The translations under genes and the position numbers were made by a program. Source: an uncultured Oscillospiraceae bacterium (lineage in GTDB: Bacteria; Bacillota; Clostridia; Oscillospirales; Oscillospiraceae). From it: 36,406 nucleotides of DNA. The stretch spans positions 1 through 36,406 of the forward strand of contig CAJOFW010000001.1 in NCBI GenBank assembly GCA_905234005.1. Direction: 5' to 3'. The notes beneath the pieces were generated by a model. The model was not told the origin of the DNA and did not search any database. It saw only the letters and a program-made list of their open reading frames with translations. Positions 1,562 to 33,462 of this stretch are shown piece after piece (position 1 is the first letter of the stretch; the number at the start of each line of letters is the position of its first letter).

Positions 1562-1677
1562 ATACTTTTCGTAAAAGAAACAGTATCATACTGTTCTCAA
1601 ATTAAAAGCTCTGTTTCGTTACCGGGCGCAAAGCCTTGGAATTGCTGCCTTTTCGAGCGAATACAAAGTTCTTTTTG
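1562..1677 (-). repeat. copy 1 (permuted) of the ~120-nt structured repeat family
   Basis: Body 1587..1677 aligns to the copies at 5954, 10644, 22331 and 29308. The AT-rich hairpin (1562..1586, ATACTTTT-CGTAAAAG-AAACAGTAT) sits on the opposite side of the body compared with other copies. Confidence 0.8.
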
Positions 1678-5920: not shown

Positions 5921-5953
5921 ATGTCAGATTCTCCTTTCAGCGGATAGCCGTTC

Positions 5954-6073
5954 TATACTGTTCTCCAATGAAAAGCTTTGTTTCGTTACCGGGCGCAAAA
6001 CCTTGGAAACGCTGCCGTTTCGAGGCGAATACAAAGTTCTTTTTGATACTTTTTCTTTGGGGAAAAAGTATTA
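5954..6073 (-). repeat. copy 2 of the ~120-nt structured repeat family
   Basis: About 13 mismatches in 120 nt against copy 3 by hand alignment. Hairpin ATACTTTTTC...GAAAAAGTAT overlaps the TAA stop (6071..6073) of the upstream gene. Confidence 0.9.
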
Positions 6074-10639: not shown

Positions 10640-10643
10640 ATTT

Positions 10644-10763
10644 TATACTGTTACCCAATCAAAAGCTTTGTTTCGTTACCGGGCGCAAAGCCTTGGAAGC
10701 GCAGCCGTCTCGAAGCGAATACAAAGTTCTTTTTGATACTTTTTCTCGAAAGAAAAAGTATTA
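10644..10763 (-). repeat. copy 3 of the ~120-nt structured repeat family
   Basis: Fills the moxR-vwa intergenic region. The hairpin overlaps the moxR TAA (10761..10763). The element ends 4 nt before the vwa ATG (10639). Confidence 0.9.
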
Positions 10764-17421: not shown

Positions 17422-19350
17422 ATGCACCGTCTTTCAAAAATTCTGTCCCTTATTCTCGCGCTCACGCTGTGCGCGGGTCTGTTTTCCGCCGCGGCGCTGG
17501 CCGGGGTGGAGGACGTCGCGCTCGACATCGAGGACGTCTCCGACGGCCTTGAGACCGTCCGGGCCGACGGCGAGACCGTCGTTCCCGGCGAGGACGCCGT
17601 CGTCACGGACGGCGCGTCCGTGACCGTCGGCGACGCGGAGAAAAACCTCGCCGACATGATGGCGCGGTATCCGCACGGCTCGTACTGGACAAGCTCGTTC
17701 AACGGCGGCACCACCTGCTACGGCTTCGCGAACATGGTGGTGTTCAACGTCTTCGGCTACTCCACCACCAGCGGCCGCACCTACCGCACCTGGGCCTATG
17801 ACGGCTCCAGCTCGAGCGGCATGGTGAAGCTCGGCTCCGTCGCGAAGTGCACCGAGGCGAACGTGCGCGAGCTTTTAAGCCAGGCCATGCCCGGCGACGT
17901 GGTGCAGTTCGACACCTACAACGGCGGCGGCGGCCAGCACAGCAGCGTCATCTCCGCCGTCAGCGAAGACGGCGTGACGATCTACGAGTGCAACTGGTAC
18001 GGCAGCGGCCTCGTCACGAACACCTACCTCACGTTCGCCGAGTTCGCCCGCCGCCAGTACTCCTACTCGTCCGGCGCGCAGATGCGCGGCACGCTCTCGC
18101 TTTTGCGCTCGGACAACTACGACACGTCCGACGGCGGCACGACGGCGCTGTCGATCTACGGCGCGGTCTATCCCGCCGGTACGATCGCCGCCGGGCAGAG
18201 CTTCACGCTCAAGGGCGTGATCGTCTCCGGCTCCCGGCTCACGAGCGTCATCGGCGTCATCACGAACGCCTCCGGCACGCCGGTCATGAACTACAGCACA
18301 AACCCGGACGCCACGACCTACAACATCCAGACCGGCGGTCTCGACAGCGCGTTCCGCTTCGCCACGCTGGCAAACGGCAGCTACACCTACACCGTCACCG
18401 CCTCGAACGCCGAGGAGACGAAAACGCTCATCAGCAGCGTGTTCCACGTCGGCGCGCCCTCGACGTACACGATTCGCTACGACGCAAACGGCGGCGAGAA
18501 CGGGCCGGAAGCCGTCACCAAGGTCTACGGCGAGGACGTCACGATCTCCGACGTCGTCCCGACCCTTCCGGGCTACACGTTCATCTGCTGGGCGGACGAG
18601 TCCGGCGCCGGCACGATGTACGTCGCCGGCGATACATACGTCCTCAACCGCAGCGCGACGCTGGTCGCCATCTGGATACGGGACGACGAGGATCCCCCCG
18701 TACTGCCCACGGATGACCCCGTTCCCACGGATGACCCCGCGCCCACGGATGACCCCGTCCCCACGGACGTGATCGACGACCCCGACCCGGCGGCCGACCC
18801 CGACCCGGCGGGCCTTCTTCCGTTCACGGACGTGCCCGTGACCGCGTCGTACTACCCCGCCGTGAGCTGGGCGTACGAAAACGGCATCGTGAAGGGCACG
18901 AGCGCGACGACCTTCTCCCCCGCCGCCGCCGGTACACGCGGACAGATCGTCCTGATGCTCTACCGTCTCGCCGGCAAGCCCGACGTGACCGGCCTTGACA
19001 ATCCGTTTTCCGACGTGAAGAAGAGCGCGTCGTATTACAAGGCCGTGATCTGGGCGTACCACGAGGGCATCATCAAGGGCTCGTCCCCGACCCGCTTCCG
19101 CCCGAACGAGAGCGTTCCGCGCTGGCAGCTTGTCCTGATGCTCTACCGTCTGGCCGGGAAGCCGGCGGTCAGCGGCGTCGAAAATCCGTTCACGGACGTG
19201 AACCCCGGCGACGTCTACTACAACGCCGTCCTCTGGGCCTACGAGACCGGCGTCACCCTCGGCACGAGCGCGACGACCTTCTCCCCCTGCAGCGACTGTA
19301 TGCGCTACCAGCTCGTCACCTTCCTGAGCCGCTGCGGCGCTCTCCTCTGA
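17422..19350 (+). CDS. secreted SLH-anchored protein with papain-like (CHAP/NlpC-P60-type) domain and a Listeria-Bacteroides repeat
   Basis: Signal peptide. Cys...His pair (TTCYGFANMV ... GGGGQHSSVI). YTIRYDANGG...GYTFICW repeat. PTDDP linker. Three C-terminal SLH modules (FTDV...YY.AV.WAY). Confidence 0.8.
   Translation: MHRLSKILSLILALTLCAGLFSAAALAGVEDVALDIEDVSDGLETVRADGETVVPGEDAVVTDGASVTVGDAEKNLADMMARYPHGSYWTSSFNGGTTCYGFANMVVFNVFGYSTTSGRTYRTWAYDGSSSSGMVKLGSVAKCTEANVRELLSQAMPGDVVQFDTYNGGGGQHSSVISAVSEDGVTIYECNWYGSGLVTNTYLTFAEFARRQYSYSSGAQMRGTLSLLRSDNYDTSDGGTTALSIYGAVYPAGTIAAGQSFTLKGVIVSGSRLTSVIGVITNASGTPVMNYSTNPDATTYNIQTGGLDSAFRFATLANGSYTYTVTASNAEETKTLISSVFHVGAPSTYTIRYDANGGENGPEAVTKVYGEDVTISDVVPTLPGYTFICWADESGAGTMYVAGDTYVLNRSATLVAIWIRDDEDPPVLPTDDPVPTDDPAPTDDPVPTDVIDDPDPAADPDPAGLLPFTDVPVTASYYPAVSWAYENGIVKGTSATTFSPAAAGTRGQIVLMLYRLAGKPDVTGLDNPFSDVKKSASYYKAVIWAYHEGIIKGSSPTRFRPNESVPRWQLVLMLYRLAGKPAVSGVENPFTDVNPGDVYYNAVLWAYETGVTLGTSATTFSPCSDCMRYQLVTFLSRCGALL
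18707..18769 (+). repeat. in-frame 18-bp tandem repeat (3.5 units) encoding a PTDDP(V/A) linker
   Basis: CCCACGGATGACCCCGNN repeated at 18707, 18725 and 18743, with a partial unit at 18761. Confidence 0.9.
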
Positions 19351-19390
19351 CCCGGCGGTCAGCGGCCGATCGGCCAGAGAAAACGATAAA

Positions 19391-21640: not shown

Positions 21641-22333
21641 ATGAAAATACTGGTAGTGGACGACGAGGAGCTGCTCGTCAAGGGAATCAAATTCAACCTC
21701 GAGAACGAGGGCTACGAGGTGGACGTGTGCTACGACGGGCAGACCGCCGTGGACATGGCCGCGGCGAACGCGTACAGCCTCATCATCCTCGATCTCATGA
21801 TGCCGAAGCTCGACGGGCTTTCGGCGTGTATGCAGATACGCGGGTTCTCGACCGTGCCGATCATCATGCTCACGGCGAAGAGCGAGGACACCGACAAGCT
21901 CATCGGCTTTGAGTACGGCGCGGACGACTACATCACAAAGCCCTTCAACATCCTCGAGCTGAAGGCCCGGGTGCGGGCGCTGCTGCGCCGCTCGAGCATC
22001 CAGGCCGCCGGCGGGCAGGAGGCGGCGGGCTCGGGCCGCATCACACGCGGGTTCGTCACGCTCGACACGGAGCGCCGCACCGCCGAGGTGGACGGCCGCG
22101 TCGTCGACCTCACGGTCAAGGAATTCGACCTCGCGGAGCTTCTCATGAAGAACGCGGGCAAGGTGTATTCCCGCGAGACGCTGCTCGACACGGTCTGGGG
22201 CTACGACTACCAGGGCGACATCCGCACGGTGGACGTGCACATCCGCCGCCTGCGCGAAAAGCTCGAGCGCACGCCCGCGACGCCCGAATGCATCATCACC
22301 AAATGGGGCGTGGGGTACTACTTCCGGGACTGA
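21641..22333 (+). CDS. OmpR-family response regulator
   Basis: Receiver domain (LIILDLMMPKLDG) plus winged helix (TVDVHIRRLREKLE ... KWGVGYYFRD). Confidence 0.95.
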   Translation: MKILVVDDEELLVKGIKFNLENEGYEVDVCYDGQTAVDMAAANAYSLIILDLMMPKLDGLSACMQIRGFSTVPIIMLTAKSEDTDKLIGFEYGADDYITKPFNILELKARVRALLRRSSIQAAGGQEAAGSGRITRGFVTLDTERRTAEVDGRVVDLTVKEFDLAELLMKNAGKVYSRETLLDTVWGYDYQGDIRTVDVHIRRLREKLERTPATPECIITKWGVGYYFRD

Positions 22334-22450
22334 ACCTTTTCCTGAAAGAAAAAGGTTCCAAAAAGAACTTTGTATTCGCTTCAAAACGGCGGCGTTTCCC
22401 GGGTTCTGCGCACGGTAACGAGACGAAGCCTGTAATCGGGACGCGGTATC
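22331..22450 (+). repeat. copy 4 of the ~120-nt structured repeat family (most diverged)
   Basis: Starts with the TGA stop of the response regulator. Hairpin GAACCTTTT/AAAAGGTTC carries two compensatory pair changes relative to GATACTTTT/AAAAGTATC. The body aligns throughout, with many transitions. Confidence 0.8.
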
Positions 22451-22461
22451 AATGATATTAA

Positions 22462-28167: not shown

Positions 28168-29310
28168 ATGGATCTTCAGGAGCTGAACGAACAGATCACC
28201 GCCATCGACGACGAGCTGGCCGCCCTCTTCGCAAAGCGCATGGCGCTGTCGGCGGACGTCGCCCGCGAGAAGGCCGCAAACGGCATCATCACCCCGGACG
28301 TCGCCCTCGAACGCGCCGGACGCATCCGCTTCCGCGAAAACGCCGGCGGGGCGCTGGAGGGCTACGCGGGCGTTCTGTACTCCACGCTGACCGACGTGAG
28401 CCGCAGCTATCAGGCCGCCGTCACGACCGGGGAGAACCCGGTCGCCGCACGCATGGCCGCCGCGATCGAGCACACGCCGAAGCTCTTTCCGGAGAAGGCG
28501 GCCGTCGTCTGCCAGGGCGTCGAGGGGGCGTACTCGCAGATCGCGGCGGAGCTGCTGTTTTCGGAGGCGGAGCTTCAGTTTGTGAGCAGCTTCGAGTCCG
28601 TGTTCGCCGCGATCGACCGGGGCGACGCACGCTACGGCGTGCTGCCGCTCGAGAACAGCACGGCCGGTTCGGTCAACAAAATCTACGACCTCATGATGGA
28701 ATACAACTTCAGCATCGTCCGCTCCGCCCGCATCAAGATCGACCACTGCCTGCTGGCCCGTCCCGGCGCGACGATCGACGGCATCCGCGAGATATACTCC
28801 CACGAGCAGGCGATCAGCCAGTGCGCCGGGTTTCTGCAGTCGCTGCCGAACGTGCGCGTGACCGCCTGCGCCAACACGGCCATGGCCGCGCAGCTCGTGG
28901 CGGAGTCGGGCCGGTCGGACGCGGCGGCGCTGTCGTCGCACAGCTGCGCGGAGCTGTACGGGCTCAAGACGCTCCGCAACTCCGTGCAGGACAAGGGCAA
29001 CAACCACACCCGGTTCATCTGCATCGGCCGGGAGCTGGAGATCTACCCCGGCGCCGACCGGACGAGCATCATGCTCACGACGCCGCACCGCCCCGGCTCG
29101 CTGTACCGGATCATGGCCCGCATCACGGCGCTCGGCGTGAACCTGACTAAGCTCGAGAGCCGCCCCCTGCCCGACCGGGATTTTGAGTTCATGTTCTACT
29201 TCGACCTCGACGCCCCCGTCTACGCCCCCAAGCTCCACCAGCTCATGGCCGACCTCGACAACCTCTGCGAGACCTTCCGCTACCTCGGCAGCTACTCGGA
29301 AATCGTGTGA
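28168..29310 (+). CDS. pheA: bifunctional chorismate mutase / prephenate dehydratase
   Basis: N-terminal chorismate-mutase helices (LNEQITAIDDELAALFAKRMALS). Prephenate-dehydratase domain (GVEGAYSQ, NNHTRF). ACT domain (LTKLESRP). The ATG at 28168 follows AAAGGA. Confidence 0.9.
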   Translation: MDLQELNEQITAIDDELAALFAKRMALSADVAREKAANGIITPDVALERAGRIRFRENAGGALEGYAGVLYSTLTDVSRSYQAAVTTGENPVAARMAAAIEHTPKLFPEKAAVVCQGVEGAYSQIAAELLFSEAELQFVSSFESVFAAIDRGDARYGVLPLENSTAGSVNKIYDLMMEYNFSIVRSARIKIDHCLLARPGATIDGIREIYSHEQAISQCAGFLQSLPNVRVTACANTAMAAQLVAESGRSDAAALSSHSCAELYGLKTLRNSVQDKGNNHTRFICIGRELEIYPGADRTSIMLTTPHRPGSLYRIMARITALGVNLTKLESRPLPDRDFEFMFYFDLDAPVYAPKLHQLMADLDNLCETFRYLGSYSEIV

Positions 29311-29413
29311 TACTTTTTCTTGAAAGAAAAAGTATCAAAAAGAACTTTGTATTCGCCTCAAAACGGCAGCATTTCCAAGGTTTTGCGCCCGGTAACGAAA
29401 CAAAGCTTCGCCT
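29308..29413 (+). repeat. copy 5 of the ~120-nt structured repeat family
   Basis: Begins with the pheA TGA. 11-bp hairpin GATACTTTTTC-TTGAAA-GAAAAAGTATC. The body is near-identical to copies 2 and 3 up to 29408; the distal ~20 nt have diverged. Confidence 0.9.
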
Positions 29414-29424
29414 GTTTTCTTCGT

Positions 29425-30123
29425 TTATACGCCTTGCTCCGCGTGGCCCCAGAGCTTGGCTCGCAGGGGGGCGCAGGCCCGGCCGAAGGTCATCCATTCG
29501 GCGAGGGCGCACAGGGGCAGGGCGGCGAGGATGTCCACGACCGAGTGCTGCTTCACAAAGCTCACCGATACGCAGATGAGGAGCACGGCGACCGTGATGA
29601 ACGCCTTGAGCGGCTTCGGCGCGTCGGGCTTTCTCAGCCATGTGGACAGGATGCCCAGCGAGTAGCCGACGTGCAGCGACGGACACACGCCCGTCGGCGT
29701 GTCGAACCAGTACACGAACGCCATCGCCCGTGTCAGGAAATTGTCCCGGGGGAACGTCTCGGGCCGCAGCTCCTGCCGGCTCGGCCAGAGGATGTAGACC
29801 GCCATCGCGACCACCTGCGTGATGATGATGTACGTCTGCGCCCGCCGGAACGCGGGCACGTCGAACAGCAGGAAAAACAGCAGCGTGCCGAATACGAGCA
29901 CGTACCAGAACGAGTACGCCAGCAGAAACCGCTCGTCGAACGGGATGACGTCGTCGAGCGCGCAGTGGATGACGTGGCAGCGCTCGTACGGGATCAGCCT
30001 TTCCGTCAGGGCGTAGAGAACGAAATAGCCCACCCAGCCCCAGAGCAGGTTCAGGTGGTAAAAGCGCGGCTCGCCGAGACGTGACAGGCGAAAGCCGCTG
30101 TAATCATAGAGCTTCAGGTTCAT
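29425..30123 (-). CDS. PAP2-superfamily membrane protein
   Basis: Multi-TM. PSLH and VKQHSVVD motifs resemble PAP2 C2/C3 motifs. Confidence 0.65.
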   Translation of the reverse strand: MNLKLYDYSGFRLSRLGEPRFYHLNLLWGWVGYFVLYALTERLIPYERCHVIHCALDDVIPFDERFLLAYSFWYVLVFGTLLFFLLFDVPAFRRAQTYIIITQVVAMAVYILWPSRQELRPETFPRDNFLTRAMAFVYWFDTPTGVCPSLHVGYSLGILSTWLRKPDAPKPLKAFITVAVLLICVSVSFVKQHSVVDILAALPLCALAEWMTFGRACAPLRAKLWGHAEQGV

Positions 30124-30910: not shown

Positions 30911-32185
30911 TTATTCCGCCTCCGTTTGCGTCACGCGCAGGCGTTCGACGCGTTTGTCGTCTGTCTCGAGGACGGTGATCAAAAGGTTTTTATACGTCAG
31001 CTCGTCGCCCGGGGAGACGAAGCCGCCCTGCAGCTCCATGACCCACCCGCCGACGGTCTCGCTCTCGAATTCGCCGCCGTCGTCCTCCAGTCCGGCCAGC
31101 TCGAGGAAGTCGCCAAGCGACATATCGCCGTCCAGCTCCCAGCCGCCGCCGGGCGTCTCGACGACCTCCGGCTCGACCTCGTCCGTCTCGTCCCAGATGT
31201 CGCCGACGAGCGATTCGAGCACGTCCTCCATCGTGACGACGCCGGCGGTGCCGCCGTATTCGTCGGTGACAATGGCGAGGTGCGTCTGCCGCCGCTTCAG
31301 CTCCTCGAGCACGGCGGGCAGCTTGACGGTCTTGTAGATGAAGCACGGCTCGGACAGCAGCGGCCGCACGTCGACCGGCCCGCCGTCCAGCATGGCGCGA
31401 AACAGCGCGTTTAAGTGGAGCACGCCGATGATGTTGTCGGTGTCGCCCTCGTAGACGGGCAGACGGGTGTGCGCCGCCTCGTTCGCGGCGGCGAGGATGT
31501 CCTCCCAGTCGTCGTCGATGTCGATCGCGGTCATGTCCACACGGGCGGTCATGACCTCGCTGACCGATATATCGACAAAGTCCAGCGCCGCCTGCAGAAG
31601 CTCGGAGCGGTCGCCGTCGATGACCGCCTCGTCCTCGGCGGTCTCGATGATGGACTGCAGCTCCTCGACGGCGGCCTCCTGCCCGTCGTCCCCGGACGCG
31701 TCCGGCGCGGGCAGACGCTTCGCGATGAACTCCGTGACCGTCACGGCGCACCAGACGAGCGGCGTAAGCACCGCCGCGAGGACGCGGACAGGGCGCGCCG
31801 AGGCGAGGGCGAACCGGTTCGCGTTCCTGCGGGCGAGGATCTTGGGGATCGTCTCGCCGAAGATGATGACGATCACGGTCACGGCGACGGTCGCGGCGGT
31901 GGCGCACAGACCGGCGGCGATACCCGTCCGCGCCGCGACGGCGAGGGCGATGACCGAGCTGAGCGACGACGCGCACACGTTCACGAGGTTGTTGCCGATC
32001 AAAATCGCGCCGAGCGCCCGGTCAAAGCGCTCGAGCAGCGCCAGCGCGGCGGCGGCGCGGCGGTCGCCGTCCTCCCCGGCGCTCTCGAGGCGCAGACGGT
32101 TCGCGCCGGACAGCGCCATCTCCGACGCGGAGAAGAACGCGGACAGCGCAAAGCACGCGATGAGCGCGATGATATAGCCCGTCAT
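30911..32185 (-). CDS. CNNM/CorC/HlyC-family transporter (DUF21 + CBS pair + CorC_HlyC)
   Basis: N-terminal 4-TM DUF21, a CBS pair, and C-terminal LAIVTDEYGGTAGVVTMEDVLESLVGDI. Confidence 0.85.
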   Translation of the reverse strand: MTGYIIALIACFALSAFFSASEMALSGANRLRLESAGEDGDRRAAAALALLERFDRALGAILIGNNLVNVCASSLSSVIALAVAARTGIAAGLCATAATVAVTVIVIIFGETIPKILARRNANRFALASARPVRVLAAVLTPLVWCAVTVTEFIAKRLPAPDASGDDGQEAAVEELQSIIETAEDEAVIDGDRSELLQAALDFVDISVSEVMTARVDMTAIDIDDDWEDILAAANEAAHTRLPVYEGDTDNIIGVLHLNALFRAMLDGGPVDVRPLLSEPCFIYKTVKLPAVLEELKRRQTHLAIVTDEYGGTAGVVTMEDVLESLVGDIWDETDEVEPEVVETPGGGWELDGDMSLGDFLELAGLEDDGGEFESETVGGWVMELQGGFVSPGDELTYKNLLITVLETDDKRVERLRVTQTEAE

Positions 32186-33462
32186 GTCGTCTCGCCCCCC
32201 TCCTTAACCGGCAGACGCCGGGCGGTCAGCTTGCGGATGCGGTGGCGGCGCACGTCGGACAGCGTGAACTCGAGGCCGTGGTACGTGAAGCTGTCACGCT
32301 GGGAGGGCAGCAGCGGAAAGTGCTCGAGCGCCCACTCGTTTAGGGATTTGTGGATCAGCGTCTCGTCGTCCTCGGGGTCGTCGAAATCGAGCAGCTCGAA
32401 CGCCTCGGCGACGTCCAGCCCGGCGTCCAGCTCGTACCGTCCGCCGCCCAGGGGCCGGAACAGCTCCTCCGGCTCGTCCTCCTCGTCGTAGATCTCGCCG
32501 ACAAGCTCCTCGAGGATGTCCTCCACCGTCACGACGCCGAGGGTGCCGCCCCACGCGTCCGTGACGATGGCCATGTTCTGCTTCTTGCGGCTCATCTCGG
32601 GCAGAAGGTCGTCGACCTTCGCCGTCGCGGGCACGAAAAACGGCGCGTCCAGAAGCTCCCGCAGGACGAGGGCGTCGCCCTCCCGCAGCCAGGCACGGAT
32701 ATACCGGCGTATCTGCAGCACGCCGATGATGTTGTCGATGTGCTCCTCGTAGACGGGCATGCGGCTGTGCCGCTGCTCGCGGATGAACGCGGTGATCCGG
32801 TCGGCCGGCCACGACGCGTCCACCGCCGCCATGTCCACGCGGGCGGTCAGGACGTGCTCGACCGTGATGTCGCCGAACTCGAGGGCGTTCTGCACAAGAC
32901 CGGCCTGCTCCTCGTCGAGACGGCCGGCGTCGGACATATCCTCGACGATGTCGTACAGCTCGTCCTCCGTGACGGAGACCGCGCCGTCGCCCTTCGTGTG
33001 CCGGGCGGCGGCCTCCCCGATCGCGGCGAGAAGACGCGCCAGCGGGCCGAAAACACGCATAAAAAAGCAGAGCGGCCCCGCGGTGCGCAGGCACAGCCGC
33101 TCACTGTATTTTTTGGCGACGGATTTCGGGAGCATCTCGCCGAACAGAAACAGCACCAGCGTCGTAGCCGCCGCGCCCCACACGGCCGCGCCGGCGCCCC
33201 AGCGCGTCGTGACGAGCACCGTCACGACGGCGGCGGCGGTCAGATGCGTGATGTTCGTGCCGATGAGGATCGTGGTTATGGCGCGGTCGATGTTGTCGAG
33301 CACGTACAGCGCCCGCTTCGCGCCGGGGTCGCCCCTGTCCTGCCGCGCCTTCAGCCGCGCCCGGGAAGCGGACGCGAACGCCGTCTCGGCGGCGGCGAAA
33401 AATATGGCGCAGGCCAGAAGCACGGCCAGCGCGGCGACGGACAGCCAACTGCCATCGTCCAT
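32182..33462 (-). CDS. CNNM/CorC/HlyC-family transporter, tandem paralog
   Basis: Same architecture (MAIVTDAWGGTLGVVTVEDILEELVGEI). Its stop overlaps the downstream start. Confidence 0.85.
   Translation of the reverse strand: MDDGSWLSVAALAVLLACAIFFAAAETAFASASRARLKARQDRGDPGAKRALYVLDNIDRAITTILIGTNITHLTAAAVVTVLVTTRWGAGAAVWGAAATTLVLFLFGEMLPKSVAKKYSERLCLRTAGPLCFFMRVFGPLARLLAAIGEAAARHTKGDGAVSVTEDELYDIVEDMSDAGRLDEEQAGLVQNALEFGDITVEHVLTARVDMAAVDASWPADRITAFIREQRHSRMPVYEEHIDNIIGVLQIRRYIRAWLREGDALVLRELLDAPFFVPATAKVDDLLPEMSRKKQNMAIVTDAWGGTLGVVTVEDILEELVGEIYDEEDEPEELFRPLGGGRYELDAGLDVAEAFELLDFDDPEDDETLIHKSLNEWALEHFPLLPSQRDSFTYHGLEFTLSDVRRHRIRKLTARRLPVKEGGETT

Follow-up and report, generated by a model that had tools for sequence, protein, structure and literature searches.

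The window analysed here, the whole stretch of 36,406 nucleotides at positions 1 to 36,406 of contig CAJOFW010000001.1 (forward strand; assembly GCA_905234005.1, from an uncultured Oscillospiraceae bacterium), carries five copies of a short AT-rich repeat that adjoin protein-coding genes. An earlier note on the same DNA had described them as a structured repeat family always pointing with the upstream gene and starting at its stop codon. Pfam confirmed the neighbouring genes: pheA (CM_2 and PDT domains), a two-component pair (Response_reg/Trans_reg_C, then a HAMP-HisKA-HATPase kinase), moxR/vwa (AAA MoxR, then VWA_CoxE), and an FMN reductase-Zn-ADH pair (FMN_red, then Zn-ADH). The window has a GC content of about 65%, and the copies appear in it as dips to 47-57% GC. 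The window was searched for repeats, and the family comprised the direct families D2 and D3 together with the inverted pairs I1-I5; the search tied 1584-1706, 5951-6073, and 10641-10763 on one strand to 22331-22429 and 29308-29406 on the other. The five sites of the earlier note were recovered alike by the repeat search, the alignment, and an nhmmer profile of the family, which matched exactly five sites in the window. The bounds that it had given to the copies needed correction at two of these sites: copy 1 is a 5'-truncated core followed by a separate hairpin, and copy 5 lacks about 20 nt at its 3' end, the right inverted end included. The copies and their parts are as follows.

29308..29411, plus strand: copy 5; its left TNA triplet, TGA (29308-29310), is the pheA stop codon
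29311-29334, 29336-29356, and 29385-29398: parts of copy 5, namely the hairpin, the invariant 21-nt block, and the second conserved block
22331..22451, plus strand: copy 4; TGA (the response-regulator stop), a 115-nt body (22334-22448), then TCA
10643..10763, minus strand: copy 3; TAA (the moxR stop, 10761-10763), a 115-nt body (10646-10760), then TAA (10643-10645)
5953..6073, minus strand: copy 2; TAA (6071-6073, the stop of the FMN-reductase-like gene), a 115-nt body (5956-6070), then TAG (5953-5955)
1589..1677, minus strand: copy 1, a 5'-truncated core from the invariant block CAAAAAGAAC... to the right inverted end GAGAACAGTA
1563..1588, minus strand: TGA (1586-1588) and, after copy 1, a solo imperfect hairpin, TACTGTTTC-TTTTAC-GAAAAGTA (1563-1585)

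In the table of open reading frames (ORFs), the stops of the upstream genes at 6071-6073, 10761-10763, 22331-22333, and 29308-29310 are the first three bases of copies 2-5. Copies 2 and 3 were 89% identical over 123 nt, and their 13-14 or so differences matched the estimate of about 13 in 120 made by hand in the earlier note. The Zn-ADH gene downstream of copy 2 retains its own AAAGGAG ribosome-binding site, and the vwa start codon lies 3 nt beyond copy 3. Copy 4, the most diverged copy in the window, ends 10 nt ahead of the histidine-kinase start; it was present in all six of the other contigs that encode an identical regulator protein and is therefore old and fixed. Downstream of copy 5, the stop of a convergent gene was located at 29425-29427. 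At copy 1, whose core has no leading hairpin, a DAPG-hydrolase-like ORF (1597-2445) meets no stop codon ahead of the element and extends 27 codons into it; its C-terminus (...CQKELCIRSKRQQFQGFAPGNETELLI) is therefore element-derived. The solo hairpin after copy 1 resembles the 5' hairpin left by a second copy that was otherwise deleted, or else a minimal end-loop-end unit. Past both of these, at 1524-1559, a strong two-way terminator-like hairpin was observed (AAAAACCGCAGCGC, an 8-nt loop, GCGCTGCGGTTTTT).

Since the element is open in several reading frames, further copies were sought by using its joined translations as the query against a protein collection, in which ORFs had been called across other copies. 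This search yielded 13 proteins (P0001-P0013), the contigs of which contained copies in L011 (two), L012, L013 (two), L015, L016, L017, L018 (two), and L019 (two); L-numbers (L001-L021) denote the contigs fetched for comparison, 21 loci in total. At least 10 independent copies were thereby added from chicken-gut and other metagenome contigs, and with the window the family amounts to at least 15 independent loci in at least eight metagenome assemblies, most of them from chicken gut. Exact-pattern scans with GAACTTTGTATTCG-N25-45-GGTAACGA of a 185,579-species genome set, a metagenome set, and a viral set gave chance matches in conserved coding sequence (L001-L004) or nothing. These are weak negatives: the scans did not return contigs known to have canonical copies (L019 from JGI and the ERZ contigs, among others), so the scanned collections do not contain them. 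BLASTN of one copy against plasmids and phages gave no match, and the profile search found no copy in 13.9 kb (L020) and 5 kb (L014) of related genomes.

The alignment of these copies defined an element body of 115 bp, AT-rich with about 45% GC in a 65% GC genome. Inside the flanking triplets lie inverted ends, TACTTTTTCT at the 5' side and GAGAACAGTA at the 3' side (TACT...AGTA); the former corresponds to TACTGTTCTC, the reverse complement of the 3' end. The body opens with a leading hairpin, TACTTTTTC-6 nt-GAAAAAGTA, in which the left inverted end is paired with an internal copy of the end motif. This third copy of the motif, GAAAAAGTA, stands just inside the left end as a direct copy of the right-end motif (cf. 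GAGAACAGTA), and a TCA triplet directly follows the hairpin. The element thus resembles a minimal end-loop-end unit joined to a core of 88 nt, from which the outer right end comes, and the solo hairpin after copy 1 agrees with this view. The hairpin loop is TTGAAA in most copies, TTTCGA in copy 3 (hairpin at 10737-10760), and TTTCAA in the orthologous copy of L021 (10541-10564); TTGAAA and TTTCAA being reverse complements, at least one inversion of the palindromic left end has taken place. Two internal blocks are nearly invariant, with one change in 315 site-copies for the 21-nt block CAAAAAGAACTTTGTATTCGC and four in 225 for the second block TGCGCCCGGTAACGA, whereas divergence was 7.4% over the whole element and about 12% in the variable stretches between and after the blocks. 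These two blocks would be what the transposing enzyme or its cofactors need, a role at the RNA level being the alternative. The element has no coding capacity. A peptide encoded by the open sense frame was rejected: the open frames lack a start codon, and 1-nt insertions or deletions in copy 1 and in the L016 copy disrupt them.

Two hairpin variants were observed. The left arm and loop of the copy-4 hairpin vary between strains (window 22334-22350; L005 3511-3527; L007 and L009), reading AACCTTTTCCTGAAAG, ATTCTCTTTCTTAAAAG, AACCTCTTTCTTAAAAG, and AAACTCTTTCTTAAAAG, in strains whose response-regulator genes differ at 0-2 of 690 nt; the remainder of copy 4 is near-identical among them, with single changes in L006 and L009. 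This variation could reflect a local mutation hot spot, template switching at the palindrome, or assembly noise. The second copy of the JGI contig (L019 935-1084) lacks the left arm and loop of its hairpin; in their place, ahead of the copy, stands a GC-rich hairpin, CTGTTCAGCACC-cagc-GGGTGCTGAACAG, with arms similar to the right-end motif (GAACAG).

Insertion was seen directly on comparison of filled with empty sites. In L012, the element lies inside a gene for a short-chain dehydrogenase (SDR) and splits it into ORFs of 104 and 207 aa; deletion of 118 bp restores a single SDR frame of 286 aa, and many uninterrupted 286-aa alleles were present in the protein collection at 95-99% identity (best, 99%). 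The empty site of L014 reads GTGAACGCTGTAAAAACCGCG, with the core GCTGTAAAAACC (GCTG-TAA-AAACC), whereas the filled site of L012 reads GTGAACGCTG-TAA-TACTTTTTC...GAGAACAGTA-TAA-AAACCGCG. Hence the single TAA of L014 is doubled around the 115 bp, and the BLAST segments of L012 against L014 overlap by 3 nt of the empty site. As read from the aligned alleles, the pair is a precise insertion with a duplicated triplet. A second empty site was found in a relative whose MoxR is 92% identical (L020), in which vwa begins 1 nt after the moxR stop (TGG TAG g ATG); the moxR-vwa junction of the window has 121 additional bases. Thus, empty-site alleles and a target duplication, both of which the earlier note had proposed looking for, were found. 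Among the 12 copies with both ends, the flanking triplets were TAA/TAA in three, TGA/TGA in two, TCA/TCA in two, and TAA/TAG in one, and the middle base of the triplet was equal on both sides in eight of the 12 (0.31 expected by chance; P=0.012).

Taken together, the small non-coding unit, its dispersed copies and inverted ends, the duplication between filled and empty sites, and the presence or absence between relatives suggest that the five repeats are very probably copies of a non-autonomous transposon, a transposable element of the miniature inverted-repeat type (MITE), that duplicates a 3-bp TNA target. Such an element would be moved by a DDE transposase acting in trans. An alternative is that the repeat does not move at all: a regulatory or terminator sequence, conserved and of single origin, would have been copied between gene ends by recombination or gene conversion. 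This accords with the frequent location of the repeat at the 3' ends of genes and with the A-run before and the U-rich run after its long stem. A precise filled/empty pair with a duplicated triplet within coding sequence runs counter to this explanation, as do the flanking contexts, which are unrelated and have no common flanks in the alignment, and the position between genes that need to be co-expressed (moxR-vwa and regulator-kinase). Furthermore, a terminator scan at copies 2 and 3 found no terminator-like site on either strand; an intrinsic terminator (a short-looped, GC-rich stem of 5 bp or more, then a T-run) was accordingly rejected for these two copies. We regard a non-mobile origin as extremely improbable.

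Several observations weigh against the transposon interpretation or against its details. The inverted ends are short and imperfect, agreeing at about 8 of 10 positions. Four of the 12 copies have non-matching triplets (TGA/TCA in two, TAA/TCA in one, and TGC/TGA in one), which therefore require later mutation or recombination between copies. A duplication of 1 or 2 bp with longer ends would fit the single empty site equally well; by convention it is read as 3 bp. Neither the window nor the 21 fetched loci contained an autonomous element with matching ends. Most of the copies outside the window were detected through overlapping ORFs, so that their positions are a biased sample. Finally, the orientation of the copies, with about nine of 11 interpretable copies co-oriented with the gene upstream of them (two-sided P=0.065), is unexplained by a symmetric TNA target.

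The last point concerns a claim of the earlier note, namely that the copies always point with the gene immediately upstream. This was true of the window, where each of the five has the direction of the gene 5' to it (two-sided P=0.06), and failed elsewhere: the L016 copy lies antisense within an AraC-like ORF, and the first copy of L013 is reversed at a stop. Because a T-N-A target is symmetric, insertion chemistry should not fix the orientation. Selection on co-transcribed copies would be the most likely source of the excess, rather than insertion chemistry; selection against one orientation at transcribed positions would be the most economical reading.

An orientation excess would also be expected of a single-strand "peel-and-paste" element, that is, a palindrome-associated transposable element (PATE) derived from IS200/IS605 or a repetitive extragenic palindrome (REP)-like unit mobilised by a REP-associated tyrosine transposase (RAYT), which, directed by a subterminal hairpin, would integrate in a single orientation on the 3' side of a short target. 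The perfect 9-10-bp hairpin immediately inside the left end, beside the target triplet, suits such an element, and a single empty site by itself cannot tell a duplication from an element whose last triplet equals that of its target. The middle base of the triplet, however, varies (A, G, C, and probably T) and yet co-varies across the two sides in the eight copies mentioned above, which argues for duplication and not for a fixed cleavage motif. In addition, the right end has no hairpin, the ends are inverted repeats without a GTAG/CGTC head, and no Y1 transposase was found in the window or in any fetched locus. The orientation tracks local gene direction on both strands of the 36-kb contig, whose GC skew has no origin-like switch; this speaks against a peel-and-paste element, and on the same grounds the replication strand was rejected as the cause of the orientation. 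A single-strand mechanism is accordingly very unlikely.

For the TNA-duplicating transposon, the association with stop codons follows from the target itself: TAA and TGA qualify as TNA, and the duplication restores the stop. When TNA triplets were counted in the window after exclusion of the elements and of the first 1.7 kb, which is low in GC and has no confident genes, 864 were in genes, 141 in spacers, and 27 were stop codons. All four intact window copies lie at a stop among the non-coding TNA sites (P about 7e-4). What the earlier note suggested as stop-codon targeting is thus more aptly called TNA targeting, with the stop codons TAA and TGA as the safest sites. These would be the TNA triplets available at every gene end, insertions within genes being mostly purged. 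The duplication would leave the upstream gene with an intact stop, while the downstream side would retain the original triplet and its context; because both are kept, an insertion at a stop would be nearly harmless even in a tight operon junction, and in junctions such as moxR-vwa the stop may be almost the sole survivable site. Insertions inside genes do occur, as L012 and L016 indicate. A start exactly at the stop codon, asserted for the family in the earlier note, applied to copies 2-5 of the window and did not extend to all other copies, some of which lie within genes, in either orientation. In L015, the copy lies one base beyond the stop (TGAgTGA); in L017, it follows a terminator about 70 nt beyond the stop; in the second copies of L013 and L011, the upstream ORF terminates at the TGA of the hairpin loop; and in the first copy of L013, the right-hand triplet is the stop of a convergent gene, the copy being reversed relative to the gene that it abuts. 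An observation of another kind was made in L018 (684-840), in which two copies stand head to tail. The first breaks off at GCTTTTA, immediately before TACTTTTTC... of the second, inside which the contig ends. This pair is either a nested insertion at TTA inside the first copy or a recombination product.

Subsequently, the structure noted at the RNA level was considered. Both helices described in the earlier note were present in the aligned copies: over 17 sequences, the leading hairpin pairs in 94% of the cells and the long stem (CTTTGT-A-TTCG with CGAA-ACAAAG) in 97%. The element might be, or have become, a functional RNA module, co-transcribed between cistrons and formed of a sense-strand hairpin and a multi-helix core, which the host retains for mRNA processing, stability, or translational coupling, with mobility explaining only its spread. 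In a relative, the operon junctions occupied by copies 3 and 4 measure 1 nt, which leaves no room for a promoter, and hence these copies must presumably be co-transcribed. The 10-bp long-range stem varies solely by A<->G opposite U (18 G.U cells and five unpaired), which suits the sense strand, since the other strand would have C.A mismatches. Three compensatory changes were present in the hairpin of the second L011 copy, the internal blocks are near-invariant, and the orientation excess tracks transcription, not position in the window. MITEs such as ERIC influence mRNA stability when co-transcribed (PMC3184786).

Against these points, the folding z-scores were modest and alike on both strands (-0.2 to -3.8 sense; -2.1 to -2.7 antisense), and RNAalifold favoured another stem, which uses the same 3' strand and cannot coexist with the long stem; its covariation term was only -0.34 kcal/mol. 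Compensatory changes were confined to one or two lineages, namely the second L011 copy plus one cell in a copy-4 strain variant. In copy 4, old and fixed as it is, the left arm and loop of the hairpin differ between near-identical strains, unlike a constrained hairpin, and the copies in L012 and L016 disrupt genes. As the earlier note had supposed, the element belongs to no Rfam family: nothing in the window reached the gathering score, on which ground an Rfam RNA was rejected, and the permissive setting gave only noise (E>=0.96; best, 16.8 bits against a threshold of 67.5). The scan of copies 2 and 3, which gave no terminator, showed one chance-level promoter-like site, which spans the 3' end of copy 3 and is on the opposite strand to the element. 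Support for an RNA structure is weak. A selected RNA function is possible though unsupported, and we consider it unlikely that such a module accounts for the element.

A slightly less likely combination is a mobile intercistronic RNA module, in which an operon-adapted element is kept in the sense orientation by selection and the invariant blocks act at the RNA level. In such a module, the TNA duplication would rebuild the upstream stop, the first 16 nt would hold stops in a second frame, the sense strand would fold without ending transcription, and the 3' end would hand the ribosome to the next start codon.

With respect to the parent of the MITE, no transposase was found among the 40 window ORFs scanned against Pfam, which agrees with the absence of a nearby transposase claimed in the earlier note. 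The only transposase seen near any copy belongs to an ISAzo13-family insertion sequence (IS) in L016, directly upstream of the AraC-like ORF that carries the element. This low-GC IS (L016 45-1416) encodes a 413-aa DDE_Tnp_ISAZ013 transposase and has 35-bp inverted repeats (GGAACTGTAGAAAAATAAG...), which are unrelated to the element ends; it was rejected as the parent. On the strength of the 3-bp TNA duplication alone, our best guess for the parent is the IS5 (IS1031-like group)/PIF-Harbinger superfamily, with about even chances of being right.

The remainder of the window contains other repeats and genes. Positions 1-1500 have 41-52% GC, in contrast to about 65% elsewhere, and contain no ORF with host-like high third-position GC; an ORF on the minus strand (124-693) gave weak zinc-ribbon matches below the Pfam cut-off. 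This segment may be foreign or non-coding DNA. Three tandem 183-nt units, the second and third 71% and 60% identical to the first, were located at 18819-19367, at the 3' end of a 642-aa ORF (17422-19350) with SLH and Listeria-Bacteroides repeat domains. Adjacent paralogous genes for CNNM/CBS/CorC_HlyC transporters (424 and 426 aa) occupy 30911-33462, and repeat family D5 joins the two (82% over 66 nt). The window genes also include those for GerM (Pfam "Germane"), an SLH-domain protein, and a D-Ala-D-Ala carboxypeptidase. With close homologues of the proteins beside the copies bearing Oscillospiraceae MAG labels, these genes make the host a probable high-GC member of the Clostridia. The longest contig on record for the window's MoxR protein measures 36,406 bp, so that the window is an entire metagenome contig and no part of a finished genome.

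These findings add a MITE family in uncultured high-GC Oscillospiraceae-like gut bacteria. The family is apparently undescribed, a literature search for TNA-duplicating bacterial MITEs and for stop-codon-targeting MITEs having returned general reviews only; the kind of element is well known, and it is not a new RNA device. Of the earlier note's proposal of a MITE- or REP-like element that targets stop codons, the MITE part is upheld by the empty sites and the duplicated TAA, whereas the REP likeness and the stop targeting gave way, the latter to TNA. The family provides a clean example of how the choice of target, combined with duplication, can turn stop codons into safe places for insertion in a GC-rich genome. 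A new mechanism would be at hand only if both the bias in orientation and the invariant blocks turned out to operate at the RNA level. In practical terms, metagenome assemblies break at the element, inside which contigs L018 and L021 end; it also yields spurious or extended ORFs in gene calls (P0001-P0013), splits real genes (SDR in L012), and could serve as a strain marker.

Known MITE families have dispersed copies, terminal inverted repeats, short AT-rich target duplications, and occasional insertions in genes. The bacterial MITEs Correia/CREE of Neisseria, ERIC/IRU of enterobacteria, RUP of S. pneumoniae, Nezha, and Chunjie are, like the present element, about 100-150 bp and non-coding; none of the known families has sequence similarity to it, in keeping with the lack of a match in Rfam, plasmids, and phages. 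The Correia and ERIC elements, which are long imperfect palindromes, duplicate TA, whereas the present element duplicates T-N-A, has inverted ends of only ~10 nt, and bears an extra internal copy of the end motif, which gives a hairpin at one end only. Bacterial MITEs are often found at gene 3' ends and are co-transcribed (PMC3184786).

REPs and bacterial interspersed mosaic elements (BIMEs), which are moved by RAYT, and the PATEs of IS200/IS605 are also small structured intergenic repeats near stops with a hairpin at the unit end. REPs are described (PMC3733652) as GC-rich palindromes of 20-40 bp with a GTAG/CGTC head. Neither REP/BIME nor PATE makes a target duplication, in contrast to the AT-rich, 115-bp element with its inverted ends and variable duplicated triplet. 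REP/BIME was ruled out by the length, the AT-richness, the missing GTAG/CGTC head, and the duplication, and a PATE of the IS200/IS605 type (hairpins at both ends, a fixed left target, and no duplication) by the hairpin at the left only and the variable matching triplet. The ends of the element (TACT...) are unlike those of IS5-type elements, which we take to be G-rich. Duplications of the 3-bp TWA/TNA/ANT type are typical of the PIF-Harbinger/IS5 superfamily (PMC4482050), and elements of the IS1031 group of IS5 have a three-nucleotide target (PMC2516522). The closest likeness in target is thus to the IS1031-like IS5 elements and to the eukaryotic PIF/Harbinger-ISL2EU-Spy (PHIS) elements and Tourist-type MITEs, all of which share with the present element a 3-bp T-N-A or T-W-A duplication.

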